This document shows, piece after piece, positions 13,881 through 33,462 of a stretch of 64,000 bases of DNA. A program made the position numbers and the translations under genes. The DNA is from an uncultured Acidobacteriota bacterium (lineage in GTDB: Bacteria > Acidobacteriota > Vicinamibacteria > Fen-336). Below the pieces are notes generated by a model. It saw nothing but the letters and a program-made list of their open reading frames with translations. It was not told where the DNA came from and made no database searches. Numbering within the stretch: position 1 is the first letter of the stretch; each line of letters opens with the position of its first letter. The DNA is taken from NCBI GenBank assembly GCA_964442185.1, contig CAYTWT010000257.1, forward strand, positions 97,979 through 161,978, written 5' to 3'.

Positions 13881-13890
13881 CGCGTCCTGT

Positions 13891-16102: not shown

Positions 16103-17880
16103 GCCGCGACGTACTCCGCCCACTGGGCGAGGCCGAAGAGCACGAGGCCCGCCGCGACGAGCCCCGCGACCAACCGCCCGCCAGGCTCCCGGTCGGAAAG
16201 CTCCTCGAGGAACGCGCCGGTCGCCACGGCCACGAGCGGTGCTCCGAAGGTCTCCTCCTTCAGGTCCCGGAACAGCCCGCCGCCGAACGCCTTGAGGGCG
16301 ATCAACGTGGCGAGCGTCAGGGCGTAGGCGAGCAGGACCGAGAAGGCGGCCGGTCGCGCGCGCCGCTTGAGGACCACGAGCCCAGCGAGCGTCAAGAGCG
16401 GGTAAACCCAGCCGAAGAAGATCGGCACGCGCATCAGGGCGGCCACGGGGCCTCCCGCGGCCGGGCGCGGTGCGCCGCCGGGCGTCCCGGAAACGAGGGC
16501 CGGCACGATCTCCGTGACGAACGTGAGCGTGAAGGGCAGGTAGAGCCACGCCACGGTCAGCATCGCGGTCAGCGCCACGACGCCGATGAGGCGCGGCCAC
16601 AAGCGCCGCTCCCGCACCGCGAGGAAGGCAGTGAAGATAGGCACGTTGAACAAGCTCGAGATGTAGGTGACCAGTGCGGCGAAGCTCGCCGCGCCGAAGG
16701 CCGCGGTCCGCAGCCGGCCCGGCCGCGCACACAGCGCAGCGGCAGCCACGATCGCGAGCAGGTCGAGGAGGTGGCCGACGATCGTCGGGTACATGGCGAG
16801 CAGCAGCCGGCTGTGGAGCGGCGGCAGGGTGGCCGCGAGCAGTGCGGCGAGGACGCCGCGAGAGCCCGCAGCGCGGGCCAGCGCAAAGACGAGGAGCATC
16901 TCGGTGGCGGCGGCGAAGAGCGCGGCCTGTTTCAGCGCGACCTCGATCGCCTCGCGCCCCGAGAGCCAGGAAAACGGCACGAAGAACAGCGGCGAGTAGG
17001 GGAACACGTAGGCGCGGCCCGCCAGGATCCGCGGGTAGCCGGTGTTCACGATCTTCTGTGCGGTGATGCCGCGCGCGGCGAGGCTCCCCTCGGCCTCGGC
17101 GAATGCCATTGTGTAGCGGCCATGGTTGCGCACGTCGGGATAGAAGTAGCTGGGGCAGAACACGGCGGCGCCCTTGAGGACGTAGCCCGCGAGGAACAGG
17201 AGTGCCACGGCGCGCGTCCCGGATCGGCCCCGGAGGAGCCCTGCGGTCGCAATGGCAGAGGCCGTCGCAGGCCATGCCACGAGCGTCGTCACGTGGGCGC
17301 AGCCGAACGGATCGGCGGCGGCCCAGAGCGCGAGCCCGAGCGCCGCGCCCAGGCCGACCCACAGCGACGTCCCCGCGGCTAGCCCGGCGACGACCGCCGT
17401 GAGGAACACGCCCACGAGCAGCAGGCGGGGTCCGGCGAGGTCGGGAGCGAGGCCCAACGGGAGCCCCTCGAGGCGCAGCCAGTCGAGGGCGACACCCAGC
17501 CTCTCGGCCCCCGGAGCCTCGGCGTCGAACCGGATCGTCACGGGGCCGGGCGCTGCCACCACGTGCAGAAGCACCGTGCGGAAGCGGCCGGAAGTGGCGT
17601 CCATGGTCCGCTCCGGCCCGCCGCTGACGGAGACCCGTAGAGGTGTCGTCCCATCGACGAAGCGGGCGAAGCGCAGGGTCAGGAATCCCTCGCCTCCGCG
17701 AGTCACAAGCGGAAGCGCCAGCTTGGAGTGGTCGCGCGTCCAGCGGAAGGTGACCGGGGGCCGCTCCTCGCTCTCGGTGACCCCGGCGAGATAGCGACCC
17801 GTCGAGGGGCCGACGTCGAAGGCGAGCGTGCCACGCGCCAATGGCGCGAGCCGTAGCGCCGCCTCGCCGACGAGCAGCAC
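16075..17880 (-). CDS. Hypothetical large membrane protein: N-terminal soluble domain plus a polytopic region
   Basis: 601 aa with many hydrophobic segments and good GC3 codon bias. It overlaps the GT2 gene convergently by 28 bp. Confidence 0.55.
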   Translation of the reverse strand: MLLVGEAALRLAPLARGTLAFDVGPSTGRYLAGVTESEERPPVTFRWTRDHSKLALPLVTRGGEGFLTLRFARFVDGTTPLRVSVSGGPERTMDATSGRFRTVLLHVVAAPGPVTIRFDAEAPGAERLGVALDWLRLEGLPLGLAPDLAGPRLLLVGVFLTAVVAGLAAGTSLWVGLGAALGLALWAAADPFGCAHVTTLVAWPATASAIATAGLLRGRSGTRAVALLFLAGYVLKGAAVFCPSYFYPDVRNHGRYTMAFAEAEGSLAARGITAQKIVNTGYPRILAGRAYVFPYSPLFFVPFSWLSGREAIEVALKQAALFAAATEMLLVFALARAAGSRGVLAALLAATLPPLHSRLLLAMYPTIVGHLLDLLAIVAAAALCARPGRLRTAAFGAASFAALVTYISSLFNVPIFTAFLAVRERRLWPRLIGVVALTAMLTVAWLYLPFTLTFVTEIVPALVSGTPGGAPRPAAGGPVAALMRVPIFFGWVYPLLTLAGLVVLKRRARPAAFSVLLAYALTLATLIALKAFGGGLFRDLKEETFGAPLVAVATGAFLEELSDREPGGRLVAGLVAAGLVLFGLAQWAEYVAAYSSLAGAA

Positions 17881-19013
17881 GGCGGCGAGCGCTACGGCGA
17901 TCCTGGAAATCCGCTGTCGCAGTGTCGAGCCGCCTCCGCCTGGGCAGTCTAGGGAGAGCCCTCCGGGGTGTCAAAGGGCCGCGCCCCCTTCGGTGTGCTA
18001 TCGTCGCGCGTTCCAGAAGCGGAGGGCCGAACACGCTGAGCCTGGTCGCGTTCCGCGGCGCGATCGCCGCGGGCCTACTGCTGTTGGTGGTCTTCGCCGC
18101 GTTGCGCTACGCCTGGCGGGCCACGCCCCGCCTCGAGGCCGGCGCGCTGCCCGTCGCCCTATCGGTGGCCTGCGTGTGGCCCGTGGCGCTCGCGGCGACC
18201 CCCGGTCCGACACGATGTCTCTCGGGAATCGCCGACGATCCCCTGGCCTTCTTCGAAGCCTCGCCGTGTCCACCGGCCGAGCGCTTGCTGCTGTGGCCGC
18301 TTGCGGAACTCCTCGGCGAAGGCCTGGCGGCCACCGCCCTGGAGGCGGCGGCCGTGGGCGTGGCCCTGCTGCTCGTCCATGTGCTTGCGCGGGGGGCCTT
18401 GGCCTCGGCCGGCGCCGCGACCTTCGCGCAGGCCGGCCTCGCGCTCCTGTTCGTGACCGCGCTCGAGACATCGGCGGGCGTCGCGGTGACCCTTGCCCTG
18501 GAGCTTCTGTTCCTCGCACACCTTTTCCGCCGCTACGCGCACCTGGCCGGGGCGCGCGATGCGGCGGCCACCACGGCCTACGCGCTCGGCGCGCAGCTCG
18601 GGGGTGAAGGCGCGTCGCTCGACGTCGCCGTCCTGGTCAGCGTGTTCAGCCTCGTCGAGTTCCTGTGGGGTGTGCGGGGGTCCGCGCGGCGGCTGCTCGC
18701 CGGCTGGGCCATCGCGACGGCTGTCGTCGTGGCTGCCGGGGCCGCGCCGTGGCGTGGGCTCGTGTGGGCCGAAGCATCGCTAGAGCGCACCGCCACGGCC
18801 AGCCTGACCGCGGGTGGGCTGTTGGCCCTGATCGGCCTCGTCGCGACGACACAAATGGTGGCGGGCCGCAGGCGCCTGCTGGGGGCGGCGCTCGTGGCGG
18901 GCGTGCTGCGCCTCTCGACGGGCCCGCCGCTCATGCTGGTGGGGCCGCTGGCCGCCCTCGCCGCGCTCGGTCTGGAACGGATCGTGCGCGGGGCGAAGAA
19001 GCCTGCTGCCTAA
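17841..19013 (+). CDS. Hypothetical polytopic membrane protein (possibly Wzy-like); start uncertain
   Basis: About 10 hydrophobic helices, and the opposite-strand ORFs here are Arg/Pro-rich artefacts. The first ~60 aa are Arg-rich and overlap the divergent start of the 16075..17880 gene, so the real start may lie near 18030. Confidence 0.45.
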   Translation: MARAVAPPRRRAARRRALRRSWKSAVAVSSRLRLGSLGRALRGVKGPRPLRCAIVARSRSGGPNTLSLVAFRGAIAAGLLLLVVFAALRYAWRATPRLEAGALPVALSVACVWPVALAATPGPTRCLSGIADDPLAFFEASPCPPAERLLLWPLAELLGEGLAATALEAAAVGVALLLVHVLARGALASAGAATFAQAGLALLFVTALETSAGVAVTLALELLFLAHLFRRYAHLAGARDAAATTAYALGAQLGGEGASLDVAVLVSVFSLVEFLWGVRGSARRLLAGWAIATAVVVAAGAAPWRGLVWAEASLERTATASLTAGGLLALIGLVATTQMVAGRRRLLGAALVAGVLRLSTGPPLMLVGPLAALAALGLERIVRGAKKPAA

Positions 19014-20504: not shown

Positions 20505-21482
20505 TCAGACGCGGCCCTTGTCCGACGTGAAGTAGGCGCTCACGCGGTCGAGGATCTCGTCCAGATGCACCTGCGGCTCGTAGCCGATCAGGGCCGTGAG
20601 CTTCGAGGTGTCCGGCACGCGCCGGGGCATGTCCTCGAAGCCCTCCTCGTAGGCCTTGGCGTAGGGGACGAGAACGATCTCGCTCTTCGAGCGGGTGCGC
20701 TCCTTGACCCGCATGGCGAGATCGAGGATCGTGATTTCTTCCGTGCTGTTGCCGATGTTGAAGACCTGGCCGACGGCGCCCTCTTGATCGGCAAGCCGAA
20801 CCAGGGCGTCCACAACGTCGCTCACATACGTGAAGCAGCGTCTCTGGGTGCCGTCGCCGAAGACCGTGAGCGGGTGGCCGAGCAGGGCCTGCTTGACGAA
20901 GTTCGGGACCACCATGCCGTAGCGGCCGGTCTGGCGCGGGCCCACGGTGTTGAACAGCCGCACGATCACCACCGGCAGCCGCTTCTCCTTGAAGTACGCG
21001 AGCGCCAGGAATTCGTCGATGGCCTTGCTGCACGCGTAGCTCCAGCGGCCCTTGCTGGTCGGCCCGAGCACGAGATCGGCCTCTTCGTGGAACGGCACGT
21101 CGTTGCTCTTGCCGTAGACCTCCGAGGTCGAGGCCAAGAGCACCTTCTTCTTCTTCTTGTTCGCGAGCTTCAGCACCATCTCGGTCCCGTGGACGTTGGT
21201 CTCGATGGTGTTGACCGGGCTCTCGACGATGAGCCTCACACCCACGGCTGCGGCCAGATGGAAGATCACGTCCACGCGGTCGATCAACTCGGCGCAGACC
21301 GGCTCGTTCGTGACGCTGTCGATGGCATAGTGGAAGCGCGGATTCGGCTTCAGCGGCTCGATGTTCTCGATCGAGCCTGTCGAAAGGTTGTCGAGGACGA
21401 AGACCTCGTCGCCGCGTGCGAGCAGCGCCTCGGCCAGGTGGCTTCCCACGAAGCCGGCGCCGCCGGTGATCAAGGCCTTCAT
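20505..21482 (-). CDS. NAD-dependent epimerase/dehydratase (SDR, UDP-sugar epimerase/decarboxylase-like)
   Basis: MKALITGGAGFVGSHL...YACSK (YxxxK). Contains a KKKKK run encoded by (AAG)5. Confidence 0.85.
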   Translation of the reverse strand: MKALITGGAGFVGSHLAEALLARGDEVFVLDNLSTGSIENIEPLKPNPRFHYAIDSVTNEPVCAELIDRVDVIFHLAAAVGVRLIVESPVNTIETNVHGTEMVLKLANKKKKKVLLASTSEVYGKSNDVPFHEEADLVLGPTSKGRWSYACSKAIDEFLALAYFKEKRLPVVIVRLFNTVGPRQTGRYGMVVPNFVKQALLGHPLTVFGDGTQRRCFTYVSDVVDALVRLADQEGAVGQVFNIGNSTEEITILDLAMRVKERTRSKSEIVLVPYAKAYEEGFEDMPRRVPDTSKLTALIGYEPQVHLDEILDRVSAYFTSDKGRV

Positions 21483-23185
21483 TGCCTGGCTCCCTCGGGC
21501 TCTTTCTTCTGCGCGCTCTCGAGCACGACCTCGGCCACCCGCGTCGCCCCCATCCCGTCGACGAGGCGTCGGCCTTTCTCGCTCATCTCGCGACGGCGCG
21601 CGGGGTCCCCGAGGAGCGAGGCCACCGCTCGCGCGATCTCGGCTTCGGTGGCGTCACTGCCCAGGCCGAGGTATTCGACAGTGCCGTGCCGGGCGAAGCT
21701 GCGCATTCGGCTCTCCTCGCGCAGGTTCTGGGCGAGCACCAGGCCGGGCGTCCCGACCGCCGCGATCTCGTACACGCTCATGCCGCCCGAGCAGAGCACG
21801 AGGTCCGCCTCGAGCATCAGGTCCACGATGTGGCCTTCGGCGTGCTGGATGAGCGGGATAGGCCGGGACAACGCGGCCGCGAGGCTTTCGAACTCCCGCC
21901 GGTGCGAGAAGGCCGGCCCCGCGACGGCCACGATGTCGACCGACCGGGGCAGCGCCTGAAGCGCCCGCGCCGCCTTCAGCGTGAGACCCTGCGGATCGCT
22001 GCCGCCGAACGAGAGCAGTAGCATGCGCGGCGTCTCGCGCAGCTCCTTGACGCGCGGGAGGTCGCGGAAGTGGCGACGCAGGATCGCGTAGGCCGGGCCG
22101 CCGTAAAAGCCTTCGGCCGTCTCGCGGTCTTCGTTCATCACGGACACGATGACCTGGGCGTAGGCCTCGGTCCGCTCCAGGTCGTCCAGCGTGTCGACGA
22201 GGTTCACCGTGGTCGTACCCAGGTGGGAGAGGGCGCGCAGGTACACGTCCTGCAGCGCCGGCAGGTCGTTGATCAGGATCTCGGGCGCGTAGTCGCGGAT
22301 GTGCCCGAGGTAGGTTTCGAGCTTGCCCTCGCCGGCCAGGCGCACGGGGTAGCCGTACTTCGAGACCGTGGTGAGGCCTTGGGCGTGCGTGGCGGTCATC
22401 AAGAACGCGATGTCGGCGCGCGAGCTCTCGCGCAGCGCGTCGGCGATGGCGAGCGAGCGGTAGACGTGGCCCATTCCCATCGTGGTGCCGCCGTCGACGC
22501 GGAACAGGATCCGCGGCGTCCGCAGCAGCCGCTCCGCCATCCAGAAGTCTTCGAGGTCGTGGACCGTGAAGGCCGAGCGCTTGTCGAGGGTCAGGTAGCC
22601 GACCCGCTCGCCAAAGCGCGTGGCACCGTCGAGCACCTCGCGGCGCAGCGCCACGACCGCGCCGTTTTCCTTGTAGACCGGCTGTTGTTCGTCGCGCCGG
22701 CCCTCTTTGTCGAAGAGCGGCCGCAGCCGTCCAGCTTCGGCGCGCCACGAGAGCGTGCGGTCTTCAGTCACGGAGACGACCGCGTCGAAGCCGCCGCTCA
22801 CCAGCCGTTCCAGGGCCTGCTCGATAGCAGCCGCCTCCCGAAACGGGGTCGTGACCTGGAGCACGACAACGAGGTCGTAGCGCGGGCCGGCTGCCTCGAC
22901 TTCGCGGACCGCGTGGACGATCACCGGCTTCAAGCTCGGGATGTCGGCCGCGAGCGTTCCGGGCCTGAGGAATGGAGCCTCCGCGCCGTGGCCCCGGGCC
23001 ACGTCGGCCACGCGCTCGTCATCGGTCGAGATCACGACGCGATCGATCGCGCCGCAACCCCTCGCGGCGTCGATGGTGTGAGCCAGCAGCGGCCGGTCAC
23101 CGAGACGCTTGATGTTCAGATAGGGGACGCGGTCGGTCCCGCCGCGCGCCGGGATCACCGCAAGCACGCGCAAGCCCGCCTTCAC
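21479..23185 (-). CDS. Bifunctional nonulosonic-acid cytidylyltransferase (NeuA/PseF-like) fused to a PseG-like UDP-sugar hydrolase
   Basis: N-terminal LAVIPARGGTDRVPYLNIKRLGDRPLL (cytidylyltransferase). C-terminal RILFRVDGGTTMGMGHVYRSLAIADAL resembles the PseG N-terminus (inferred). GTG at 23185-23183 overlaps TGA 23184-23182. The ORF-track N-terminal 270 aa are artefact. Confidence 0.65.
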   Translation of the reverse strand: MKAGLRVLAVIPARGGTDRVPYLNIKRLGDRPLLAHTIDAARGCGAIDRVVISTDDERVADVARGHGAEAPFLRPGTLAADIPSLKPVIVHAVREVEAAGPRYDLVVVLQVTTPFREAAAIEQALERLVSGGFDAVVSVTEDRTLSWRAEAGRLRPLFDKEGRRDEQQPVYKENGAVVALRREVLDGATRFGERVGYLTLDKRSAFTVHDLEDFWMAERLLRTPRILFRVDGGTTMGMGHVYRSLAIADALRESSRADIAFLMTATHAQGLTTVSKYGYPVRLAGEGKLETYLGHIRDYAPEILINDLPALQDVYLRALSHLGTTTVNLVDTLDDLERTEAYAQVIVSVMNEDRETAEGFYGGPAYAILRRHFRDLPRVKELRETPRMLLLSFGGSDPQGLTLKAARALQALPRSVDIVAVAGPAFSHRREFESLAAALSRPIPLIQHAEGHIVDLMLEADLVLCSGGMSVYEIAAVGTPGLVLAQNLREESRMRSFARHGTVEYLGLGSDATEAEIARAVASLLGDPARRREMSEKGRRLVDGMGATRVAEVVLESAQKKEPEGARQ

Positions 23186-24234
23186 AACATCTCCCACGTG
23201 AGAGTCGTGTCCTCGGGGATGTCGACCGCGGCGATGCGGCCAATCACCTGGTCGAAGAAGCGGGGGCTGATGCCGGTGCCGGGCCGCTTGTAGGTGAGCA
23301 GCGCGCGCGTGAGCCTCGTGCCCTTGGGGATCGCGACCGCCGAGGTCACGCTGCGCCGCGCGTAGTGGAAGGCGTCGGTTTCGAGGGGCTCCAGGCCTTT
23401 CTGCGCCTTGCCCAGCGCCTTCTCGACCGTGCGGATGCCCTCCAGCATCGCCTTCATCTCGAGGGGATCGACCGACAAATGATGATCGGGCGAGCCCGGC
23501 AGCGCCTTGTCCACGGTGTAGTGCTTCTCCAGCATGCAAGCGCCCAGCGCCACGGCTGCCTGCGGCACGCTGATCCCGAGCGAGTGATCCGAGAGACCCA
23601 CGGGCACCTCGGGGAACGCCCGCATCAGGTGCTCCATCATGCGCAGGTTGATGGCTTCGGGAGGACACGGGTACTTGAGCGTGCAGTGGAGCAGCACGAC
23701 CTCCTGGTTGCCGACCTTGCGGCAGACTTCGAGGGCCTCCTCCACCTCGGCCAGGGTCGACGTGCCGGTCGAGAGGATCATGGGCTTTCCGACGCGGGCT
23801 GCCCGCTCCAGGAGCGGATGACAGGTGAGATCCGCGGACGCGATCTTGAAAGCGGGCACCTGGAGGGAGGCGAGGAAATCCACGGCTTCGTCGTCGAAGG
23901 GTGTGGCGAACGCAGTGATGCCAACCGTCTTTCCGTGCTCGAGCAGTGCCCGGAAATCCGCGTCGGAAAGCTTGTCGAGGCGATCGAAAGTGTCCCACTG
24001 CGTCCCCTTCGGGTCCTTGGGCTCGAACCAGTAGCGGGGCGCCACGCGCGTCGAGAGCTTCGACGCCGTGTAGTTCTGGAACTTGACCGCGTCGGCGCCC
24101 GCCGCTGCAGCCGTCGCCACCAGGCGCTTGCCGAGGGCGAGATCGCAGTTGTGGTTGACGCCCGCCTCGGCGATCACGTAGCAGGGCTCGCCACGGCCGA
24201 CGCGGCGGCCGGCGATCTCGAAGACCGACTTCAC
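23182..24234 (-). CDS. NeuB/PseI-family nonulosonic acid (sialic/pseudaminic acid) synthase
   Basis: EPCYVIAEAGVNHNCDLALGKRLV...AVKFQ and a C-terminal antifreeze-like domain. GTG at 24234-24232 overlaps TGA (verified). Confidence 0.8.
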   Translation of the reverse strand: MKSVFEIAGRRVGRGEPCYVIAEAGVNHNCDLALGKRLVATAAAAGADAVKFQNYTASKLSTRVAPRYWFEPKDPKGTQWDTFDRLDKLSDADFRALLEHGKTVGITAFATPFDDEAVDFLASLQVPAFKIASADLTCHPLLERAARVGKPMILSTGTSTLAEVEEALEVCRKVGNQEVVLLHCTLKYPCPPEAINLRMMEHLMRAFPEVPVGLSDHSLGISVPQAAVALGACMLEKHYTVDKALPGSPDHHLSVDPLEMKAMLEGIRTVEKALGKAQKGLEPLETDAFHYARRSVTSAVAIPKGTRLTRALLTYKRPGTGISPRFFDQVIGRIAAVDIPEDTTLTWEML

Positions 24235-25025
24235 TTGTTCCCCGCGATGGCGGCGTCGAGTTCGACCGAGCGCACGTTGTGGGACTTGTGGACCAGGTGG
24301 CTGTTCAGCTTCGCGAGCTCCGGCTCGCGGTCGAGAAGCTCGATGGCCTGCCTGGTGGTGACCAGCTGCCCGGGTGCGGCGAGCCGCGCGAAGAGCGTCT
24401 GCATCAACTCCACATCTTCTCTCTCGTCGACCGTGAGACGGTACTGCGGGCGATACAGGGTCGGATCGAGCTCGAGCGCCTGGACCCGGAACTCCCGCGG
24501 GTGCTCCTTGATGTAGAGCGTCACCAGTTCGGAGCGGTGTCGCGCTTCGCCACGCTCCCAGGATTGTTCGAGAGCGCTGCGCGAGATGACCTCGGAAAGG
24601 ATCCCCATCAGGAGCGCGTCGCCGGGCACGAAGCTGTAGTCGGCGCCGGACTCGAGATGTCGCACAACCAGGCGCTCCATCGTTTCGAGATCGGTGAGCG
24701 GGTTGTCGCCCGTGACGCGGATGATGTGCTGCGCGCCCATCGACCCCGCGCAGTCGATGTAGCGGCGCAGCACGTCGTCCTCGTCGCCCTGGAAGGCGGG
24801 GATGCCGAGCTGACGGCTGAGCTCCACGAGCGGCAGGTTCTCGGCGTTCACCGAGGTCGCCAGGCAGACGCTGTCGAGCTGGGGGGAAGAGGCGATGCGC
24901 CGTAGCAGCACGCTGAGCAGAGGCTCGCCTGCGAGCGGCACGATGGCCTTGCCGGGGCAGCGGGTGGAGGCCATCCGCGCCGAGACGATCGCGACCACGC
25001 GGGGCTCGGTCCCGAGCGGGTTCAC
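24231..25025 (-). CDS. Acylneuraminate cytidylyltransferase-family protein (SpsF/FlmC-like)
   Basis: VVAIVSARMASTRCPGKAIVPLAGEPLL. GTG at 25025-25023 overlaps TGA 25024-25022 (verified). Confidence 0.65.
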   Translation of the reverse strand: MNPLGTEPRVVAIVSARMASTRCPGKAIVPLAGEPLLSVLLRRIASSPQLDSVCLATSVNAENLPLVELSRQLGIPAFQGDEDDVLRRYIDCAGSMGAQHIIRVTGDNPLTDLETMERLVVRHLESGADYSFVPGDALLMGILSEVISRSALEQSWERGEARHRSELVTLYIKEHPREFRVQALELDPTLYRPQYRLTVDEREDVELMQTLFARLAAPGQLVTTRQAIELLDREPELAKLNSHLVHKSHNVRSVELDAAIAGNK

Positions 25026-26053
25026 TCGAGCATCTCCTCGCGAATCGTCTCGTCGGCCTGAATTGGCCGGGCGGCGCGCCGGCCAATCACGCGATCCGCC
25101 TCGCGCGGGGCGAAGCCCGCCTCGAAGCGGATGTCGGTCCGCTTGAAGGCGAGCATCGGCGCGCGCAGCACCTCGCCGCGCGGGATCAGCGTCGCGGCCA
25201 CGATCGAGCGGGCCATCAGGCGGTGATAGCGCTTCGCCCCTTCGCTTTCGGCGGCCGCGGCATCGCCCCGCGCCCGTTCGGCCTGGCGCAGCAGCTCGAC
25301 CATCCGGTAGAAGTCCTCGGGGCTCAGCGACGACTGGTAGTCGAAGCCCTTCTCGCTGCGATCGAGGGTGAAGTGCTTCTCGACGAGATCGGCCCCGTAG
25401 GCCGCGGCCAGCGCGGGCGCCACCAGCGCAAAGGAACTGCCCCCGTCGGTGTGATCGAGAAAGCCGATTGGCACCCGGAAGCGCTCTTTCCAGCGCGTCA
25501 GATCGCTGAAACGGATCTCTTCGATCGGTGTCGGGAAGGTTTGGAAGCCGTGGAGCAGGCCCACCGGCGCTGCCCCCACCCGGTCGAGCGCCTCGTGGAT
25601 GGCCTCCTCGGGCACGCCGCCAGTGGCGAAGAACACGGGCTTGCCGAGCGCCCCCACCGCGCGGATGAAGTCGGGGTTCTCCATATCGGTGGTGTGGACC
25701 TTGTAGCCGTCGGCGCCGGCCTCGGCCGCCATCTCCAGAGACGGCGGGTCGAACGCCTCGGCCAGGACGGCCAGGCCCGAAGCCTTTGCCGCCTTCAGGA
25801 TCTTCTTCCACTCTTTCGCCGTCAACTCGATCTGGTCGAAGTCCTTGCGCCCCGGGTGCCTGCGGACGACGAGCCGGTCGGAGCGGAAGAGCTGGAACTT
25901 GATGCCGTCGGCCCCCATTTTGAAGGCGGCCTCCAACATCTTGAGTGCCGTGTCGGCGGACCCGCCATGGGCGGAGGCAACCTCGGCGAGAACGAAGCAG
26001 GGCGCGCCTTCTCCAACCTGGCGGGGGCCCAGCGTCATCGCCTTTGGCCTCAT
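25022..26053 (-). CDS. Second NeuB-family nonulosonic acid synthase paralog
   Basis: APCFVLAEVASAHGGSADTALKMLEAA...IKFQ with a TIM-barrel synthase fold. It sits in the same module as the NeuB-family gene at 23182..24234. Confidence 0.7.
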   Translation of the reverse strand: MRPKAMTLGPRQVGEGAPCFVLAEVASAHGGSADTALKMLEAAFKMGADGIKFQLFRSDRLVVRRHPGRKDFDQIELTAKEWKKILKAAKASGLAVLAEAFDPPSLEMAAEAGADGYKVHTTDMENPDFIRAVGALGKPVFFATGGVPEEAIHEALDRVGAAPVGLLHGFQTFPTPIEEIRFSDLTRWKERFRVPIGFLDHTDGGSSFALVAPALAAAYGADLVEKHFTLDRSEKGFDYQSSLSPEDFYRMVELLRQAERARGDAAAAESEGAKRYHRLMARSIVAATLIPRGEVLRAPMLAFKRTDIRFEAGFAPREADRVIGRRAARPIQADETIREEMLE

Positions 26054-26083: not shown

Positions 26084-26806
26084 ATGCCCGGAATGCGCGT
26101 GCGCGTGGGGACGAGCGGCTATAGCTACAAGGAGTGGAAGGGGAGCTTCTATCCGGAGGATCTCCCCGCCGCGCAGATGCTCCGCTTCTACGCACAGCGC
26201 TTCGCGACCGTCGAGATCAACAACACGTTCTACCGCATGCCGAACCGCGGACTGTTCGAGCGCTGGGCCGCCGAGGTCCCGGAGAGCTTCGCCTTCGTCT
26301 TGAAGGCGCCGCGCCGCATCACCCATCAGAAGCGGCTGCAGGCGACGGCCGCCGAAGACCTCAAGTTCCTCTGGGAGACGGCCGCGGCGCTCGCTCCCAA
26401 GCTCGGCCCGATCCTCTTCCAGACCCCACCGTTTCTCAAGAAGGACATCGACCGCTTGCGGGGCTTTCTCGGGCTCTTGCCCGCGGGGTGTCGCGCAGCC
26501 TTCGAGTTTCGTCACGAGAGCTGGTTCGACGACGAGGTGAGGCAGGCGTTGCGGGACGCAGGTGCTTCGCTTTGCGCGGCCGATACCGACGCAGCGGAGA
26601 CGCCCGAAGCGATCGAGGCGACGGCCGCGTGGGGTTATCTGCGACTTCGTCGCACGGACTACGACGACGCGGCGCTCGACGCCTGGGCGGCCCGGGTGCG
26701 TGCCCAGGCCTGGGACGAGGCCTGGGTGTTCTTCAAGCACGAGGACGAAGGCAACGCGGCCGTCCTGGCGCAGCGGTTTGCGAAGCGTTTCTCGATCCCC
26801 GTCTAG
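26084..26806 (+). CDS. DUF72 (YecE-like) family protein
   Basis: MPGMRVRVGTSGYSYKEWKGSFYPEDL is the canonical DUF72 N-terminus. The start was located at the in-frame ATG 26084. The upstream part of the ORF-track ORF is antisense to the second NeuB-family gene. Confidence 0.75.
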   Translation: MPGMRVRVGTSGYSYKEWKGSFYPEDLPAAQMLRFYAQRFATVEINNTFYRMPNRGLFERWAAEVPESFAFVLKAPRRITHQKRLQATAAEDLKFLWETAAALAPKLGPILFQTPPFLKKDIDRLRGFLGLLPAGCRAAFEFRHESWFDDEVRQALRDAGASLCAADTDAAETPEAIEATAAWGYLRLRRTDYDDAALDAWAARVRAQAWDEAWVFFKHEDEGNAAVLAQRFAKRFSIPV

Positions 26807-26818
26807 GCCCGTCGCCCC

Positions 26819-27841
26819 TCACGGTTCGAGCACCCCGGCCGCCGCAAGCTGCGGCGCCAGGGTCTCCGCCATCAGCTGGCTTCCAGCGGGGCTGAAATGC
26901 AGCGAGTCGATGAAGTACTCCAGGGTCGACGGCAGCGGTGTGTCGATCCCCAGATCGCCCACATCCAGCACCGGTACATTCAGCGAGCGCGCGGTCTCGA
27001 GAAGCACAGCCACATAGGGCGTCCCCCGCGAGTGCGTCTCGTTCGGGTCCTTCCGGCGTGGCAGTGCGATGAAGACGGGGCGGGCGCCCGACTTCCGGCA
27101 CTCGGCAACGATCGCGGCCAGGTTCTCCCGATACCGCACGAGACTGACGCGGGCCACATCCCGCGGCGCGCTCGTGGCGGAACGGACCCGCGAGCGCAAG
27201 TAGGCCGCCTTGATCGCCCGATACAGATAGCTCTGGTCGAGGGCGCCATCGACATCGCGGGCGAGCGCCAGGCGCCGAGCATACTCGCGATCGTCGGCGG
27301 TCCGGACGTTGCCATCGTTCCAGCCGATGCAGATCGTGACCACGTCGGGCTGCAGCAGCGGCACCAGGCGCCGTACGTGGCCCAGCACCTGGTGGCTCGT
27401 GAAGCCGGTCACGCCTGCATTCACAACCTCGACACCGCCGCCTCGGAGCAGGCGCCCCAGGTGGAAGGGGTAGGTCTCGTCGTCGCCCGCCCCGTAGCCG
27501 AAGGTGATCGAGTCGCCGAAGCACAGCACGCGGCGAGAGCCGGGGGTGCGGTCGGGCACCTCCGGCCCGCGCAGACCGATCGAGTTGATCGTGACCGGCT
27601 TGCCCTGGAACTTTCCCTTGAAGCCGGGCTGCGGCGACCAGAAGACGTCCTTGTCCCCACGAATGAAGGGCAGCGTGATGTCCGAATCCATCTGATGCAG
27701 CAGAATCCGGGGCGAGACCGGGCGGGCGACACCCACGATCCGCAGCACGACTTCGCTCAGCGCGAAGAAACCCAGGATCAGGATCGAGGCGAACAGGATC
27801 GATCGACCCCGGGAGAAATGCAGTCGGTCCGGCGCGGTCAT
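26819..27841 (-). CDS. SGNH/GDSL hydrolase-family protein with an N-terminal membrane anchor
   Basis: VLCFGDSITFGYG block, DxxH-type C-terminus, N-terminal hydrophobic helix. Lies 18 bp downstream of ligD on the same strand. Confidence 0.7.
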   Translation of the reverse strand: MTAPDRLHFSRGRSILFASILILGFFALSEVVLRIVGVARPVSPRILLHQMDSDITLPFIRGDKDVFWSPQPGFKGKFQGKPVTINSIGLRGPEVPDRTPGSRRVLCFGDSITFGYGAGDDETYPFHLGRLLRGGGVEVVNAGVTGFTSHQVLGHVRRLVPLLQPDVVTICIGWNDGNVRTADDREYARRLALARDVDGALDQSYLYRAIKAAYLRSRVRSATSAPRDVARVSLVRYRENLAAIVAECRKSGARPVFIALPRRKDPNETHSRGTPYVAVLLETARSLNVPVLDVGDLGIDTPLPSTLEYFIDSLHFSPAGSQLMAETLAPQLAAAGVLEP

Positions 27842-27859: not shown

Positions 27860-30424
27860 TTACCCGCCGAGGCGCTCGGCCAGGCGGGCGAGCGCTCGAG
27901 ACAGATCCGGCTCGCGATCCAGCACCGGGCGCATCGGATCGCGCTTGCGCTTCGCCAGGCGGGCCGGCAGCGTGCGGATCGTGAAGCGCCTCGGGTCGAG
28001 GCGCTTCGTGACCTCCCTCCACTCGAGCGGTGTCGAGACGGTCGCCCCCGGAAGCGGCCGGACCGAGAACGGCGACGCCAACAACCGGCCGTGTCCGTTC
28101 TGGAGAAAGTCCACGTAGACCCTTCCGCCGCGAGCTGACGGGTTGCGGATGACAGTCGCGAACTTCGGATGACGCTCGACGAGCACCCGAGCCATCAGCT
28201 CTGCGAGCGACCGGGACTGTTCATACGTGAGCTGCCGTCCCAAAGGCACCAGCACGTGAAGGCCCGTGGACCCGCTGCTCTTGGGAAAACTCGGGACGCC
28301 CATCTCCTCGCACAGTTCCCGCGCCGCGCGCGCCAGCGTCACCACGTTTTCGAAGGGCGCGCCCTTGGGGTCGAAGTCGAGGATCGACCAATCGGGGTGT
28401 TGGAGCGTCGCCACGCGGCTCGACCAGATGTGCAACGGGATCGTGCCCAGGTTGGCGAGGTAGAGCAGCGTCTCGACGTCGTCCACCACGAAGTAGTCGA
28501 TCTCGCGCTGGGCGTGCTCGCTCCACATCCGCTCGGTGCGAAGCCAGCCCGGACCGAAACCAGGCGCGTCCTTCTGGAAGAAGTTCTTGCCGGTGATGCC
28601 GTCGGGATAGCGGGTGAGCACGACGGGGCGGTCCCTGAGATAGGGCAGGAGCCAGGGAGAGACCGTGCGGTAGAACTCGATCAGGTCGCCCTTCGTGTAG
28701 CCTTCTTCGGGCCAGAAGACCTTGTCGAGGTTCGTGAAAGCGACCTTCTTCTCGACTTCGCGCACGGGCTTGGCCGGCTCGGGAAGAGCGGGCGGCTTCG
28801 CTTCGACCTCGGCGCCCTCGCGCACGCACTCCTCGGGCGCCTTGTCGTCGCGGAAACGGACGAAGACCGGCTGCCGCAGCAGCCGGCCCGGCGGCCACTC
28901 GAGGTAGCGCACTTCGCAAACGAGGCGCGGGTCGACCCAGACGTGTCCCGCGCCCTTCGGCGTCTCTCCCACGCAGGGAGGCGCTTTGCGCCGGAGCGGT
29001 TCCAGCCGCTCGGGGATCGCCTTCAGGTCCTTCTCGTCGAAGCCGCTGCCGACCCGCCCGGAATACACGAGCCGGCCGTTCTCGTACGCTCCCAGGTGCA
29101 GCGCCCCGAAGCCGGTGCGCATCCCTTCGGGCGGGCTCAGGCCGCAGACCACGAAATCGCCGCTCTTCTCGAGCCGGAACTTCAGCCACTGTGCCGAGCG
29201 CCCCGCCGTGTACCGGGCGTCCGCGCGCTTCGCGAGCATCCCTTCGAGGCCGATCTCGCGCACGCCCTCGTAGAAGGCCTCGCCATGCTCCTCGACGTGT
29301 TCCGAGTAGCGCAACGGCCCCGCGCGCGGCAGCACGCGCGCCAGCAGCTCTTTGCGAGCCGCGAGCGGCAGGCCACGCAGGTCGAAGTCCTCGAACGCGA
29401 GCAGGTCGAAGACGTAGTAGGTCGCCGGCGAGAGCTGGGCGGCGCGCGCGACGTCGGAATCGCGCTTCATCAGGCCTCGCTTCTGCAGGCGCGTGAAGCT
29501 GGGGCGGCCGGCCTCGTCGAGGATCACGACCTCGCCGTCGAGCACCAGACCGTCATAAGGCAGGCCGGAGACCGCCCGTGCGATCTCGGGGAACGTCGCG
29601 GTCGCGTCCGAGCCGCGCCGGAAGACCAGACGCGACTGTCCCTGGTCACGAGCGGCCAGGATCCGGTAGCCGTCGTACTTCAGCTCGAACAGCCAGCCGC
29701 TCCGGGTGAACGGCTGCTCGCGCGACTCCGCCAGCATCAGGCCGACCTTTGCGACGTCGAGCTTCTTCCGCGGCGCCTTCAGCTTGACGAGCTCGGCGCG
29801 GATCGCCTCCGCGCGCTTCGTGCCCTCCTGCAGCTCCTCGAGCGTCAATCCCGAGTAGATCGACTCGGGCTTGAGCGCACGCGCGCCCTCGGACCCCGAC
29901 CACGCGTCGGGCTTCTTGATCAGCAGCCATTCCTTCTGCGTGCTCCGCTGGGCCCGCTTGGTCCGGAACAGGTGCCACAACCCGCGCAGCTTGTAGCCGC
30001 GCAGCTCGAACGTGAATTTGCCCAGCTGCATGCCGTGCTCGGGGTCTTCGTGCGGGATCCAGACGCCCTTGTCCCACACGATCACGGCGCCCGCGCCGTA
30101 GTTGCCTTCGGGGATGAGGCCCTCGAAGTCCGCGTACTCGACGGGATGGTCCTCGACTTCGACCGCGAGCCGCTTCTCGGCGGGATCGGCGGAGGGCCCC
30201 TTCGGCACGGCCCAGCTCAAGAGCACGCCGCCCAGCTCGAGGCGGAAGTCGTAGTGGAGGCGCCGCGCGGCATGCTTCTGGACGCAGAAGATCCGCGGCC
30301 GTGCCCAGGAGGCCGCGGCGGAAGCCTCGACGGGAGGGGCGTCGACCGGGGCCGCGCCCATCGGCTCCGGCGTCCGGTCGCCGGAGCGCTTGGCTCGATA
30401 CCGATCGAGGTTCTTGACCGCCAC
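27860..30424 (-). CDS. ligD: Multidomain ATP-dependent DNA ligase LigD: phosphoesterase, ligase and polymerase (primase-like) domains
   Basis: N-terminal RIFCVQKHAARRLHYDFRLE (PE domain), FELKYDGYR adenylation lysine motif, and a C-terminal LigD polymerase domain. 854 aa. Confidence 0.9.
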   Translation of the reverse strand: MAVKNLDRYRAKRSGDRTPEPMGAAPVDAPPVEASAAASWARPRIFCVQKHAARRLHYDFRLELGGVLLSWAVPKGPSADPAEKRLAVEVEDHPVEYADFEGLIPEGNYGAGAVIVWDKGVWIPHEDPEHGMQLGKFTFELRGYKLRGLWHLFRTKRAQRSTQKEWLLIKKPDAWSGSEGARALKPESIYSGLTLEELQEGTKRAEAIRAELVKLKAPRKKLDVAKVGLMLAESREQPFTRSGWLFELKYDGYRILAARDQGQSRLVFRRGSDATATFPEIARAVSGLPYDGLVLDGEVVILDEAGRPSFTRLQKRGLMKRDSDVARAAQLSPATYYVFDLLAFEDFDLRGLPLAARKELLARVLPRAGPLRYSEHVEEHGEAFYEGVREIGLEGMLAKRADARYTAGRSAQWLKFRLEKSGDFVVCGLSPPEGMRTGFGALHLGAYENGRLVYSGRVGSGFDEKDLKAIPERLEPLRRKAPPCVGETPKGAGHVWVDPRLVCEVRYLEWPPGRLLRQPVFVRFRDDKAPEECVREGAEVEAKPPALPEPAKPVREVEKKVAFTNLDKVFWPEEGYTKGDLIEFYRTVSPWLLPYLRDRPVVLTRYPDGITGKNFFQKDAPGFGPGWLRTERMWSEHAQREIDYFVVDDVETLLYLANLGTIPLHIWSSRVATLQHPDWSILDFDPKGAPFENVVTLARAARELCEEMGVPSFPKSSGSTGLHVLVPLGRQLTYEQSRSLAELMARVLVERHPKFATVIRNPSARGGRVYVDFLQNGHGRLLASPFSVRPLPGATVSTPLEWREVTKRLDPRRFTIRTLPARLAKRKRDPMRPVLDREPDLSRALARLAERLGG

Positions 30425-30428
30425 GTTC

Positions 30429-31400
30429 CTAGCCGCGCCGGGCGCAGATCGCTTTCACGATCGCGTCGCCGTGGAAGCGGCCGGTCTCGATGAAGATCTT
30501 GCTGGTCTCGTTCCCGGCGGCGATTGAGCCGGCCACGTAGAGGCCGCGCACGTTCGTCTCGAGCGTCTCGGGATCGTGCTCCGGCTTGAGCGTTTGCGCA
30601 TCGATCCTGACGCCCGCCTCCACCAGGAGCCGCGGATCCGGGTGATAGCCGGTGAGCAGGAAGATGGCATCGGCGGGAACCTCGTCTCGGCCGCGCGGGC
30701 CCTCGAGCACGACGCTCTTCGCCCGAATTTCGGCGACGCGCGTCTCGAAGCGCGCCGGGACCGCGCCCTCCTTGATGCGGTTCTCGATGTCGGGCTTGAT
30801 CCAGTACTTGATCGAGGGCGAGAGCGAGGCGCCGCGGTGAACGAGCGTGACGCGCGCGCCTGCGCGGTGCAACTCGAGCGCCACGATCGCGGCGGAGTTC
30901 TTGCCTCCCACGACCACCACGTCCTTCCGGTAGTAGGCGTGCGGCTCGTCGTAGTAGTGCGAGACGTGCGGCAGGTCCTCACCGGCGATGCCGAGGCGGT
31001 TCGGGTGATCGTAGTAGCCGATCGCAAAGGCGACGTTCCGCGCGTCGAGGGTCTCGTCGTGGCCGTCATGGCGCGCCAGGACGTCGAAGCCGGCGGCCTG
31101 TGGCCTCGCGCGCAACACCTCGACGCCGAGCGCGATCTCGAGCGCGTAGCTCTCGACGACGCGCCGATAGTAGCGTAGCGCCTCCCACTGGGTCGGCTTC
31201 TCATAGGGCGTCACGAACGGCAGGCGGCCGATCTCGAGCAGGTCGGGCGTCGTGAAGAAGGTCATCGCGCGCGGGAAGTGGAAGATCGAGTTGACTAGAA
31301 CGCCCTTCTCGAGCACCTGGTAGTCGAGGCCCGCGCCGTGCGCCGCGATCGCGACGGCGAGGCCCGCCGGTCCCGCCCCGACGATCAGCAGGTCCTTCAC
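30429..31400 (-). CDS. YpdA-family FAD-dependent thiol-disulfide oxidoreductase-like protein
   Basis: MKDLLIVGAGPAGLAVAIAA...second Rossmann VVVVGGKNSAA. Resembles the YpdA bacillithiol-disulfide-reductase family (inferred). Confidence 0.6.
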   Translation of the reverse strand: MKDLLIVGAGPAGLAVAIAAHGAGLDYQVLEKGVLVNSIFHFPRAMTFFTTPDLLEIGRLPFVTPYEKPTQWEALRYYRRVVESYALEIALGVEVLRARPQAAGFDVLARHDGHDETLDARNVAFAIGYYDHPNRLGIAGEDLPHVSHYYDEPHAYYRKDVVVVGGKNSAAIVALELHRAGARVTLVHRGASLSPSIKYWIKPDIENRIKEGAVPARFETRVAEIRAKSVVLEGPRGRDEVPADAIFLLTGYHPDPRLLVEAGVRIDAQTLKPEHDPETLETNVRGLYVAGSIAAGNETSKIFIETGRFHGDAIVKAICARRG

Positions 31401-32449
31401 AGGTCCTGCCGCGTCACGCCCTCGATCGCGAGGACGAAGTCGGGGCCGTAGGCCTTCGAGGGCGTCATGAACCCCGGGGGAGCGTCGCCGCCCAGCGAGC
31501 GCTCTGCGATCGTCAGCGCCGTGAGCGCCGTCAGCGTGTAGCCCTCGGGCGTCTGCTGTCGAGCCGCCGCGCGGCGTCCCTGGTCGTCCTCGACCTCACC
31601 CCAGAAGAAACACCGTCCGCGCTCACGCGCGTCGGTCGTCGGCCCGGGCGCGCCGGCCCGCACTCGGCGCAGCAGGAAGGACTGGACCGGTCTGGTCGCC
31701 GCGAGTCCGAGCAGGGGCCGCGCGAGCCGCAACGCGAGGATGCGCGCCGGCGCCGCCGCCACGTAGACCTCGATGTTCGGGATGCCGGTGGAGTGAAAGG
31801 CGGTGGACACGTCGCCCCACGGGATGGTCATGGCCTTGCGCGGCCCGCGCCCGAAATCGATGAGTCGCGTCCTGTAGGCAGGCGGAACCGGCGTGAGCAG
31901 GCCGTTGCGCCGCACCAGGCCTCCGCGATGCAGGTTCTCGATCATCGTGGTGAGGGTGCCTCGTGACAGGCCGCCGCTCGAGTGAAACGCGAGCGTCAGG
32001 CGCGTCGCGCTGGGCAGCCGCCTTTTCAGGTGCGCGGCCAGGCAGTCCGAAGGCACCACGTCGAAGCCGGCGCCCGGCAGCAGCATCACGCCGGCCGCTT
32101 TCGCCTCCGCGTCGCGCCCGGCCAGCGTCTCGAAGACCGCGGCTTCGCCCGTGATGTCGAGATATTGCGCGCCGACACGCAGGCAGGCGTCGACCATCTG
32201 CCTGGACGTGTGCGAGAACGGGCCCGCGCAGTGCACGACCACCCGGACACCCTCGAGGCCGCGCTCGAGTGTCGCGGGATGATCGAGCCCGAAGATGCGT
32301 GACTCGAAACCCAGCTCGCGCGCGAGCCCGCCGATCGACCCGCCGCGTGCCGCAAGGATCGGGGCGAGCCCGCGCGCCCGGGCCAGGCGCGCGACGAGCT
32401 CGCCCGTGAAGCCGTTCGCGCCGTAGATGAGTAGCCGGTCGCGCATCAC
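31397..32449 (-). CDS. Saccharopine dehydrogenase-like NAD(P)-binding oxidoreductase
   Basis: LLIYGANGFTGELVARLA...VVHCAGPF. ATGA overlap with the downstream gene. Confidence 0.6.
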   Translation of the reverse strand: MMRDRLLIYGANGFTGELVARLARARGLAPILAARGGSIGGLARELGFESRIFGLDHPATLERGLEGVRVVVHCAGPFSHTSRQMVDACLRVGAQYLDITGEAAVFETLAGRDAEAKAAGVMLLPGAGFDVVPSDCLAAHLKRRLPSATRLTLAFHSSGGLSRGTLTTMIENLHRGGLVRRNGLLTPVPPAYRTRLIDFGRGPRKAMTIPWGDVSTAFHSTGIPNIEVYVAAAPARILALRLARPLLGLAATRPVQSFLLRRVRAGAPGPTTDARERGRCFFWGEVEDDQGRRAAARQQTPEGYTLTALTALTIAERSLGGDAPPGFMTPSKAYGPDFVLAIEGVTRQDL

Positions 32450-32558
32450 TTGGCCTGCGAGGCCTCAGAGACTACTTCATCCCATCGGGCGACGAAAGCC
32501 ACCAGATGTTGTCGCCGGGCATCCATCCACCGCCAGATATTGTGGCTTAACTCCTTGC

Positions 32559-32595
32559 TTGATAATGACTTGCAGTCGCATGCTAAGATGATTTC
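32559..32595 (+). promoter_or_regulatory. Putative sigma70-like promoter for ku giving a leaderless transcript
   Basis: TTGATA (32559-64), a 19-nt spacer, TAAGAT (32584-89), then 6 nt to the ATG at 32596. This is the only AT-rich patch in the area. Confidence 0.35.
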
Positions 32596-33462
32596 ATGGC
32601 AGCACGACCACTGGCTTCCGGCACCCTCAGCTTCGGGATGGTGTCGATTCCGATCAGGCTCTTCTCGGCCGCGGAATCGCAGGCGGCGATCTCCTTCAAC
32701 CTGCTTCACGCCAAGTGCAAGTCCCGTCTGGAGCAGAAGTACTTCTGCAAGAAGGACGGCGAGCAGGTGCCCCGCGACCAGATGGTGAAGGGCTACGAGT
32801 TCTCGAAGGACCAGTACGTGACGTTCACGCCGGAGGAGCTCAAGGCGCTCGAGCAGGAGAAGGAGCGCGCCATCGAGATCACGGAGTTCGTGCCGGCGCA
32901 GCAAGTCGATCCGATCTACTTCGACGGCGCCTACTTCCTCGGTCCCGACGAGGGTGGCGACAAGGCCTACCACCTGCTGGCCGAGGCGATGCGGCAGACC
33001 GGACGCGCGGCGCTCGCCAAGTGGGCGGCGCGCGGCAAGCAGTACCTGGTGCTGATCCGCCCGATGGGCAAAGGCCTCGTCATGCAGCAGCTGCTCTACG
33101 CCGACGAGGTGCGCGCGATCGACGAGGTGCCGCTCGGCGAGGCCGAGGTGAAGGATGGCGAGCTGAAGCTCGCGGTCCAGCTCGTCCACCAGATCGCCTC
33201 CGAGGAGTTCCGTCCGCAGGACTACGAGGACGAGGTCAGGAAGCGCACCAAGGACGCGATCCAGAAGAAGGTCGAGGGCCAGGAGATCACGGCCGCGCCC
33301 GAAGCGCCCAAGGCGCAAATCATCGACATCATGGAAGCGCTCAAGGCGAGCCTCGCGAAGAAGTCCGAGGCGGCGAAGCTCGCTGCGGCCGCCGTTGAAG
33401 ACCGGCCCAGCGCGAAGCGCGCCTCGCGCCCAGCCGCCCGCCCCCTGTCTCGCGCCAGGTAA
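32596..33462 (+). CDS. ku: Ku protein (non-homologous end-joining DNA-end-binding protein)
   Basis: GTLSFGMVSIPIRLFSA Ku core and a Lys/Ala-rich C-terminal tail. Divergent from the ligD operon. Confidence 0.9.
   Translation: MAARPLASGTLSFGMVSIPIRLFSAAESQAAISFNLLHAKCKSRLEQKYFCKKDGEQVPRDQMVKGYEFSKDQYVTFTPEELKALEQEKERAIEITEFVPAQQVDPIYFDGAYFLGPDEGGDKAYHLLAEAMRQTGRAALAKWAARGKQYLVLIRPMGKGLVMQQLLYADEVRAIDEVPLGEAEVKDGELKLAVQLVHQIASEEFRPQDYEDEVRKRTKDAIQKKVEGQEITAAPEAPKAQIIDIMEALKASLAKKSEAAKLAAAAVEDRPSAKRASRPAARPLSRAR

Follow-up and report, generated by a model that had tools for sequence, protein, structure and literature searches.

Bacterial nonhomologous end joining (NHEJ) is usually described as a two-protein system. 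The two-component loci of Mycobacterium (Rv0937c/Rv0938) and Pseudomonas place Ku and a LigD with phosphoesterase, ligase and polymerase domains (PE-Lig-Pol) on opposite strands, a layout that the locus described here shares. The main comparative survey of NHEJ examined only how near to each other Ku and LigD lie (PMC7719229), and in Sinorhizobium meliloti the NHEJ genes are stress-induced via the general stress response (PMC6379672). Here we analyze a 64,000-nucleotide stretch of DNA (the window; contig CAYTWT010000257.1, positions 97,979 to 161,978, GenBank assembly GCA_964442185.1) from an uncultured Acidobacteriota bacterium of the Vicinamibacteria lineage Fen-336, in which Ku and LigD are accompanied by genes for a YpdA/Bdr-family flavoprotein, a saccharopine-dehydrogenase-like (SDH) oxidoreductase, an SGNH hydrolase and a DUF72 protein. 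In one clade of Acidobacteria, Ku is linked to the thiol-disulfide-reductase homolog more faithfully than to LigD, and the layout points to shared stress regulation, not to new repair chemistry. We propose, with a probability of about 0.5, that the block is a stress-linked repair neighborhood sharing one divergent control region.

Results

Organization of the Ku-LigD block

Four genes form a closely packed run on the minus strand. The first encodes the SDH-fold NAD(P) oxidoreductase (31397-32449; PF03435, Sacchrp_dh_NADP, 33 bits against a cutoff of 25.1) and is followed by genes for the YpdA/Bdr-family FAD/NADPH flavoprotein (30429-31400; TIGR04018, 409.6 bits against 339.9), for PE-Lig-Pol LigD (27860-30424; TIGR02776, 523.9 bits against 373) and, last in the run, for an SGNH/GDSL hydrolase with an N-terminal membrane anchor (26819-27841; PF13472, GDSL_2, 94 bits). 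Ku lies on the plus strand (32596-33462; PF02735, 177.5 bits; TIGR02772, 292.6 bits against 150), across a strandless 146-nt spacer (32450-32595) that, judging from its sequence and from the intergenic regions of relatives, would serve as a divergent control region. As read from the sequence, the SDH and YpdA genes overlap by 4 nt, and gaps of 4 nt and 18 nt separate YpdA from LigD and LigD from the SGNH gene. The SDH protein has an exact database match of 349 aa (P0001), and its gene probably starts, as in that protein, at the ATG at 32446, which would lengthen the Ku|SDH spacer to 149 nt.

An earlier, sequence-only reading of the window had proposed this minus-strand order, its tight packing and the divergent Ku across 146 bp; our open reading frames (ORFs), with coding-type GC content at third codon positions (GC3, 0.85-0.92), agree with it in coordinates, families and junctions alike. 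Absent from that reading was the gene for a DUF72 protein of the YecE/TM1631 family (plus strand, 26084-26806; PF01904, 212 bits), placed by frame statistics and translation, which converges on the SGNH gene with 12 nt between the two stop codons; the minus-strand run therefore ends there. A scan with the sigma-70 consensus, which is not informative for this phylum, found no promoter or terminator between the four minus-strand genes, being at or below shuffle expectation, and an Rfam scan gave no match.

LigD contains the LigD_N (PE), DNA_ligase_A_M, DNA_ligase_A_C and LigD_Prim-Pol domains, its phosphoesterase, ligase and polymerase parts all being present, and scores above the cutoffs of TIGR02776, TIGR02777, TIGR02778 and TIGR02779. 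Ku shows the beta-barrel core homology expected in bacterial NHEJ (PF02735, TIGR02772). Exact database look-up returned no match for the window LigD, and for the SDH and SGNH proteins it returned matches only on short JGI contigs. Judged by homology and gene order, the window carries a canonical Ku/LigD locus for bacterial end joining, whose configuration is ancient and specific to its lineage.

Conservation of the gene neighborhood

A metagenome scan seeded on YpdA, and unbiased as to NHEJ, returned 34 loci with at least 65% YpdA identity and 27 below that value. Ku is the divergent upstream neighbor in 28 of the 30 assessable loci of the first group and in 3 of 22 of the second, all three at 63-65%; in YpdA relatives below about 64% identity the link to Ku is missing. 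LigD directly follows YpdA in 2/34 and 0/27 loci, respectively, and DUF72 lies downstream of YpdA in 18/34 (10 within 300 nt) and 1/27. Where YpdA identity is at least 63%, 22 loci have the junction Ku|YpdA and 14 have Ku|SDH-YpdA. Grouped by YpdA identity, these 36 Ku-linked loci fall into 23 clusters at a threshold of 90% and into 12 at 80%; pairwise identities go down to 60%, and the genes on both sides of the junction vary: MerR-TPR, UDG, GT9 and others lie beyond Ku, and DUF72, LigD, an outer-membrane-type protein and many others lie after YpdA. Ku, not LigD, is the constant partner of YpdA and SDH, and LigD is the least constant member of the block.

The sequence-only reading had emphasized a tight linkage of LigD to the redox enzymes. 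Such linkage does recur, the tight SDH-YpdA-LigD(-SGNH) run being conserved in L058, L082, L002, L175 and L176, but centering the block on LigD is not tenable given its 2/34 occurrences after YpdA vs 28/30 for Ku. Among loci reached through SDH and SGNH homologs on long contigs, L082 has the window order minus the SGNH gene, and L175 and L176 have the complete window order with SGNH; all three keep operon-like spacing, with gaps of 4-22 nt. L084 has Ku|SDH with DUF72 nearby and neither YpdA nor LigD, and L086, from a Pyrinomonadaceae genome found in the SDH/SGNH-homolog look-up, lacks any repair context. The neighbors are thus conserved with NHEJ genes in relatives at operon-like spacing, contrary to the complete lack of conservation that the earlier reading had named as the sign of chance, and on the strength of these comparisons the arrangement is more than chance adjacency. 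Because SDH and YpdA are each missing in some loci (L001, L003, L084 and the Ku|YpdA loci), they do not form an obligate set. As far as the sampled sequences reach, the link of YpdA and SDH to NHEJ is confined to one Vicinamibacteria-type clade.

A LigD-seeded genome scan gave 80 loci (L001-L080) from Acidobacteriota, Gemmatimonadota and Myxococcota, onto which the window proteins were mapped. The closest relatives of the window LigD (66-71% identity) are found in Vicinamibacteria/Acidobacteria metagenome-assembled genomes. About 65 of the 80 loci contain the directly divergent, canonical Ku|LigD pair; only L001, L002, L003, L011 and L058 have SDH and/or YpdA placed between the two, and the YpdA/SDH link is absent from about 74 loci, spread over all three phyla. 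Recurrent LigD neighbors were sought by unbiased clustering of all called genes, by tblastn and by Pfam. MerR-TPR was found by tblastn in 48/80 loci (37 by gene clustering), Abhydrolase_11 in 23/80 (11 by clustering) and DUF72 in 22/80; besides these three and Ku, no gene cluster occurs in more than five LigD loci. Two Gemmatimonadota loci, both of which also carry DUF72, encode a homolog of the SDH-fold protein (44-46% identity) just downstream of LigD (14906-15940 in L041, 12541-13575 in L043). The two loci are similar and probably represent one event, and they are the sole hint of an SDH-NHEJ link outside Vicinamibacteria.

The MerR-TPR protein, of about 275 aa, combines an N-terminal MerR-type helix-turn-helix with C-terminal TPR repeats and is encoded directly downstream of Ku on the same strand (for example in L002, L026, L082 and L175) in about half of the LigD loci; the window has no such gene, and we found no report in the literature that links MerR-TPR to NHEJ. 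The Abhydrolase_11 gene (PF20408), encoding an alpha/beta hydrolase, begins between a few and about 80 nt past the LigD stop codon in loci that include L010, L033, L046, L060, L062, L070, L071 and L078, and it occupies the slot that the unrelated SGNH hydrolase takes in the window.

Two further genes were observed around the YpdA-linked loci. A UDG-superfamily gene (PF03167) lies on the Ku side in 17 metagenome loci by tblastn (L084, L096, L107, L108, L117, L121 and L122 among them), beyond Ku/MerR-TPR, and the neighborhood that includes it is a small repair hub. A divergent gene for a 2H phosphoesterase/cyclic-phosphodiesterase-like protein (PF07823, PF13563) with two HxT/S motifs adjoins DUF72 in L003 (13084-13617), L011 and L084; it is a possible candidate for a nucleic-acid end-healing partner.

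The proposed divergent control region

A conserved block occupies the final ~50 nt ahead of the Ku start codon; it reads ...AAAGACTTGAC-N6-7-cTGCTAnnAT-N6-ATG in 16 aligned relatives. Across the intergenic regions of 44 relatives (16 aligned), the block ...GACTTGAC-N6-7-cTGCTAnnAT-N6-ATG is kept whether SDH or YpdA faces Ku. The window form is TTGCAG-N5-TGCTAAGAT, in which TTGCAG occupies 32570-32575 and TGCTAAGAT, spanning 32581-32589, ends 6 nt short of the Ku ATG. Further recurrent motifs lie toward the SDH/YpdA side, at 32468-32479, 32494-32508 and 32533-32545.

Because the extended -10-like element lies so near the start codon, the layout suggests that the ku mRNA is leaderless or nearly so. 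The whole spacer is only 37-47 nt in some relatives, and there the two divergent promoters must therefore overlap; overlapping divergent promoters would fit shared control and are not proof of it. Within 32547-32598, a TTGAC-like element lies upstream of the -10-like element at a distance of just ~8 nt, which departs from standard -35 spacing.

The two oxidoreductases

The YpdA homolog shows full-length similarity to two solved Bdr structures, 7A76 (278.9 bits, residues 4-321) and 7A7B, keeps the FAD and NADPH motifs, and has no added domain. The Cys14 of the Firmicute proteins (GGGPCG) is replaced by Ala in the window protein (GAGPAG), and the position is Ala or Ser in 120/120 of the closest homologs. 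An earlier YpdA paper found the C14A mutant to be inactive; a structural paper on YpdA describes Cys14 as buried and replaced outside Firmicutes, and hence as not universally catalytic. We considered the loss of Cys14 as an argument against YpdA function and rejected it, since the replacement in non-Firmicutes is already published. By homology, the window protein is a member of the YpdA/Bdr family and a putative bacillithiol-disulfide reductase. Bacillithiol has been detected in Acidobacteria (PMC10950700), and none of bshA, bshB and bshC is recognizable among the genes of the 64-kb window.

An AlphaFold2 model of the SDH-like protein (pLDDT 93.7) was matched by Foldseek to 8DEB, 8H50, 3ABI and 1E5L, at TM-scores of 0.75-0.79 and identities of 13-16%. 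The resemblance, to carboxyspermidine dehydrogenase, L-lysine dehydrogenase and saccharopine reductase, extends over the whole chain, so that both the N-terminal NAD(P)-binding Rossmann domain (PF03435) and the second domain of the family are present. The model identifies the protein as an NAD(P) oxidoreductase of the saccharopine-reductase/carboxyspermidine-dehydrogenase fold; because its identity to all solved enzymes is just 13-16%, we assign no specific activity.

A Ku protein with special redox features was also considered. The Cys/His pattern of Ku (H-x2-C...C-x2-D) does not differ between YpdA-linked and canonical loci, and the idea was rejected because the pattern is identical in both locus types.

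Evolution of the block

In a YpdA tree, the Ku-linked loci form one large clade, with outgroups that lack Ku. LigD-bearing loci are scattered through this clade (L011, L002, L082, L058/L176, window/L175, L003/L108 and L107), which argues that the window-type order is ancestral; LigD was probably present in the ancestor and repeatedly lost. The same scattered distribution tells against regarding the presence of LigD in the operon as rare and derived. The SGNH gene is limited to one YpdA subclade, and the sisters L098 and L103 have neither LigD nor SGNH.

The most parsimonious history would begin with a Ku|LigD layout and a convergent DUF72 gene, which loci from Myxococcota and elsewhere (L008, L013) retain. 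A single insertion would then have placed SDH-YpdA between the Ku promoter region and ligD, after which LigD would have been repeatedly lost or relocated and SDH lost in several lineages, with a glycan-type SGNH gene captured late, after ligD. The losses are clean, with no YpdA remnant in L001 and no SDH remnant in L003; a Pfam-less 280-aa ORF in L175 is an intact SDH whose gene call was truncated.

The sequence-only reading had taken the position of the block, between two halves of a glycan supercluster, as a sign of an insertion event, and the comparison of GC and GC3 with the flanks tells against this. The window has 66-73% GC and the block ~0.66-0.71, there is no shift in composition across 26-34 kb, and GC3 is 0.85-0.92, like that of the flanks. 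The same reading had seen no flanking repeats or integrase, and we likewise find no tRNA and no integrase in the window, its repeats being short, imperfect and in no case meaningful as flanking. The block also sits between GT9 and NeuB genes in L001, L002, L058, L082, L098, L103, L175 and L176. Of the features that would mark a mobile island, none is seen: there is no integrase or recombinase, no pair of flanking direct repeats, no tRNA as a target and no shift in composition, and relatives do carry the block at this site. Judged by composition and synteny, the site of the block in the glycan supercluster is old and stable and not that of a recent island.

DUF72, the SGNH hydrolase and the surrounding genes

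The DUF72 protein matches its profile over the full length (212 bits, profile positions 1-216 of 217) and finds PDB entry 1VPQ at 2.8e-18 by sequence and at 1.8e-32 by profile. The 22 of 80 LigD loci that have DUF72 within 10 kb of LigD come from Acidobacteriota (5), Gemmatimonadota (13), Myxococcota (3) and an unclassified source (1), in at least four arrangements (convergent and directly after LigD, co-directional and directly after LigD, directly after Ku, and one gene removed), and DUF72 is the neighbor with the broadest phylogenetic support. The searchable literature describes no recurrent association of DUF72 with Ku/LigD. The DUF72 TIM barrel has been likened to UV-damage endonuclease (UVDE) and endonuclease IV (EndoIV), and DNA binding has been predicted for the family, along with enrichment near translesion polymerase operons and DNA-damage gene contexts (PMC11791011, PMC3828134). 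Of all the neighbors, DUF72 appears the likeliest to be a real end-processing accessory, with a hypothetical role as a nuclease.

In L175, genes for Vsr and NotI-like endonucleases and for a C5 DNA methylase (11278-15853) lie beside a full copy of DUF72 and a partial duplicate of it (residues 107-237, 92% identical), which looks like the insertion of a restriction-modification cassette with target duplication.

The SGNH hydrolase has the block I GDS motif at residues 109-111 and the block V DxxH motif (DSLH) at 312-315. Its N-terminus consists of a basic stretch followed by a hydrophobic segment (residues 15-33, Kyte-Doolittle 2.49), an anchor that is kept in 117/118 full-length homologs; by the positive-inside rule, the catalytic domain should face outward. 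Only the window, L058, L175 and L176 have the gene after LigD, and a 56% identical relative adjoins a Polysacc_synt flippase in a polysaccharide cluster with no repair genes (L177). Because of the conserved membrane anchor and the polysaccharide context of the relative, we assign the protein to the surrounding glycan pathway, in which it is probably a membrane-anchored extracytoplasmic esterase. On the same two grounds, a role for this esterase-family hydrolase in DNA-end processing, as the earlier reading had entertained, is implausible.

Apart from the block, which is embedded in it, the region of ~1-46 kb is a glycan biosynthesis cluster of about 45 kb, with GT4, GT2 and GT9 transferases, a DegT aminotransferase, epimerases, a flippase and two NeuB-type synthases with cytidylyltransferases. 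The two NeuB-type nonulosonic-acid synthase genes lie on the minus strand at 21479-26053, each paired with a gene for a CMP-sugar cytidylyltransferase domain, which suggests two sialic-acid-like sugar branches within one cluster; the long ORFs listed there overlap in different frames, and the gene borders were set roughly by frame statistics. Seven ORFs with a good coding signature have no Pfam match at E<=1e-5 (1664-3409, 4728-6716, 11332-12744, 16075-17880, 17841-19013, 45777-46754 and 47815-49350); most of them lie inside the glycan cluster, and they may encode membrane proteins of that pathway, such as polymerases or ligases. A gene for an HhH-GPD base-excision glycosylase (51453-52130), some 18 kb away from the NHEJ genes, has a GT2 transferase gene at its flank and overlaps a HEAT-repeat/cyclophilin ORF at the start listed for the latter.

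Discussion

We propose that, in the ancestor of a large Vicinamibacteria-type clade, SDH and YpdA genes became lodged between divergent Ku and LigD to give the order Ku <- | -> SDH-YpdA-LigD, with a convergent DUF72 gene closing the block. The four minus-strand genes would be co-transcribed from the 146-bp control region shared with Ku. Because thiol oxidation and DNA breakage occur under the same conditions (stationary phase, desiccation, oxidative stress), Ku and the oxidoreductases may have been kept together so that they are switched on jointly when thiols oxidize and DNA breaks. Ku and LigD would carry out end joining, YpdA would regenerate a low-molecular-weight thiol, and the SDH-fold protein would catalyze an NAD(P)-dependent reaction, with neither oxidoreductase touching DNA; the SGNH gene would ride on read-through transcription.

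Several points weigh against this proposal. Co-regulation is inferred from gene layout alone, and the consensus promoter/terminator scan, uninformative for this phylum, yielded nothing above shuffle expectation. Much of the sampled clade keeps the wider GT9...NeuB synteny, and inertia therefore accounts for some of the conservation. Beyond the Vicinamibacteria-type clade, no sampled locus has YpdA near Ku/LigD, and the YpdA tree is a neighbor-joining tree that carries no support values. As for DUF72, a profile search of the PDB finds DUF72 entries only, and neither UVDE nor EndoIV; the single-sequence model (pLDDT 44.7) is too poor for fold comparison; and Escherichia coli carries the DUF72 protein YecE without having NHEJ. 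Ku/LigD are found near DUF72 in 0/6 plasmid contexts from other taxa, which include Deinococcus, where an RNase H-like gene accompanies DUF72 together with the gene for an SOS-response peptidase, and Hymenobacter, where DUF72 occurs with RtcB. The link of DUF72 to NHEJ is therefore lineage-restricted rather than universal: on the sampled contexts, the association with Ku/LigD is real but limited to certain lineages.

Part of this evidence could also be read as historical accident, SDH-YpdA having landed once between Ku and LigD in an order that then persisted by synteny inertia and has no regulatory or functional meaning. The restriction of the link to one clade speaks for such an accident, as do the GT9...NeuB synteny kept in many of the same loci and the clean drop-out of SDH, YpdA and LigD. 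Against an accident, the Ku|(SDH)YpdA junction survives in 28/30 loci with YpdA identities as low as 60%, even as different genes replace those on its two outer sides; the close packing (4-nt overlap, gaps of 4-22 nt) is kept as well. We regard an accident as possible and, on balance, somewhat unlikely. A more direct role, along the lines of the sequence-only reading, is also conceivable, in which YpdA and/or SDH are biochemical accessories of end joining that keep Ku/LigD thiols reduced or act on oxidized ends or protein-DNA adducts. This would suit the clade-wide linkage to Ku, the SDH-fold homolog downstream of LigD in L041 and L043 and a neighborhood rich in repair genes (UDG, 2H phosphoesterase, DUF72). 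We consider it improbable, however, because YpdA does not recur across phyla, Ku is retained in loci that lack one or the other enzyme, the Cys/His pattern of Ku does not differ between YpdA-linked and canonical loci, the YpdA protein is a plain Bdr homolog of full length that has gained no domain, and the similar L041 and L043 probably count as one event.

The remaining explanations concern the surroundings of the block. Its embedding in the ~45-kb glycan cluster, together with an SGNH hydrolase that suits a glycan role, would allow SDH, YpdA and SGNH all to belong to glycan biosynthesis, with the NHEJ genes merely among them; yet Ku|SDH-YpdA|DUF72 also occurs in loci with no glycan genes nearby (for example L114, L117, L121, L133 and L091-L093), and this explanation therefore fits SGNH alone, which makes it very improbable for the three genes together. 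It is scarcely credible that the block is a genomic island of recent acquisition that entered the glycan cluster, even though it does separate two glycan gene sets: GC (~0.66-0.71) and GC3 (0.85-0.92) are uniform with the flanks, tRNA and integrase genes are missing, only short imperfect repeats are present, and the same position is occupied in relatives whose proteins are 67-88% identical. The stress-linked neighborhood with its shared control region is the reading that we prefer.

In three soil-dominant phyla, the NHEJ locus repeatedly carries MerR-TPR, Abhydrolase_11 and DUF72, and we found no published description of these as recurrent NHEJ neighbors. Nor does the searchable literature describe a set of SDH, YpdA and a hydrolase in NHEJ, just as the sequence-only reading had stated. 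Links that prove to be regulatory would indicate when NHEJ is used by these uncultured soil bacteria, and if DUF72 is an end-processing enzyme, a function would be gained for a large, widespread orphan family that includes E. coli YecE. A bolder picture, which we regard as unlikely, is that of a Vicinamibacteria module of Ku, YpdA, SDH and DUF72 with LigD optional, in which DUF72 would be an end-cleaning nuclease and the flavoprotein would supply reducing power for oxidized ends or repair proteins, with MerR-TPR, Abhydrolase_11 and DUF72 as undescribed accessories in Acidobacteriota, Gemmatimonadota and Myxococcota.

Compared with described systems, the window DUF72 protein is a clear member of the DUF72/TM1631/YecE family (1VPQ, 1VPY, 1ZTV) and stands apart through its association with Ku/LigD, which is absent in the other sampled taxa. 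The YpdA homolog resembles the Firmicute YpdA/Bdr enzymes of Staphylococcus aureus and Bacillus cereus (7A7B, 7A76) in its full-length homology, its TIGR04018 score above the cutoff and its FAD/NADPH motifs; it differs in the replacement of Cys14 by Ala/Ser, in a Ku-linked context that is unreported for Firmicutes, and in an activity that is here putative. The general stress regulon of S. meliloti, under RpoE2, provides a precedent for tying ku/ligD transcription to stress (PMC6379672), but it is a regulon of dispersed genes, whereas here the tie would be hard-wired by gene order. Unlike the two-component NHEJ loci of Mycobacterium and Pseudomonas, finally, the locus in the window has two oxidoreductase genes between the Ku promoter region and ligD, which makes ligD the third gene of a predicted operon, and most sampled members of the clade keep Ku with the oxidoreductases and without LigD.

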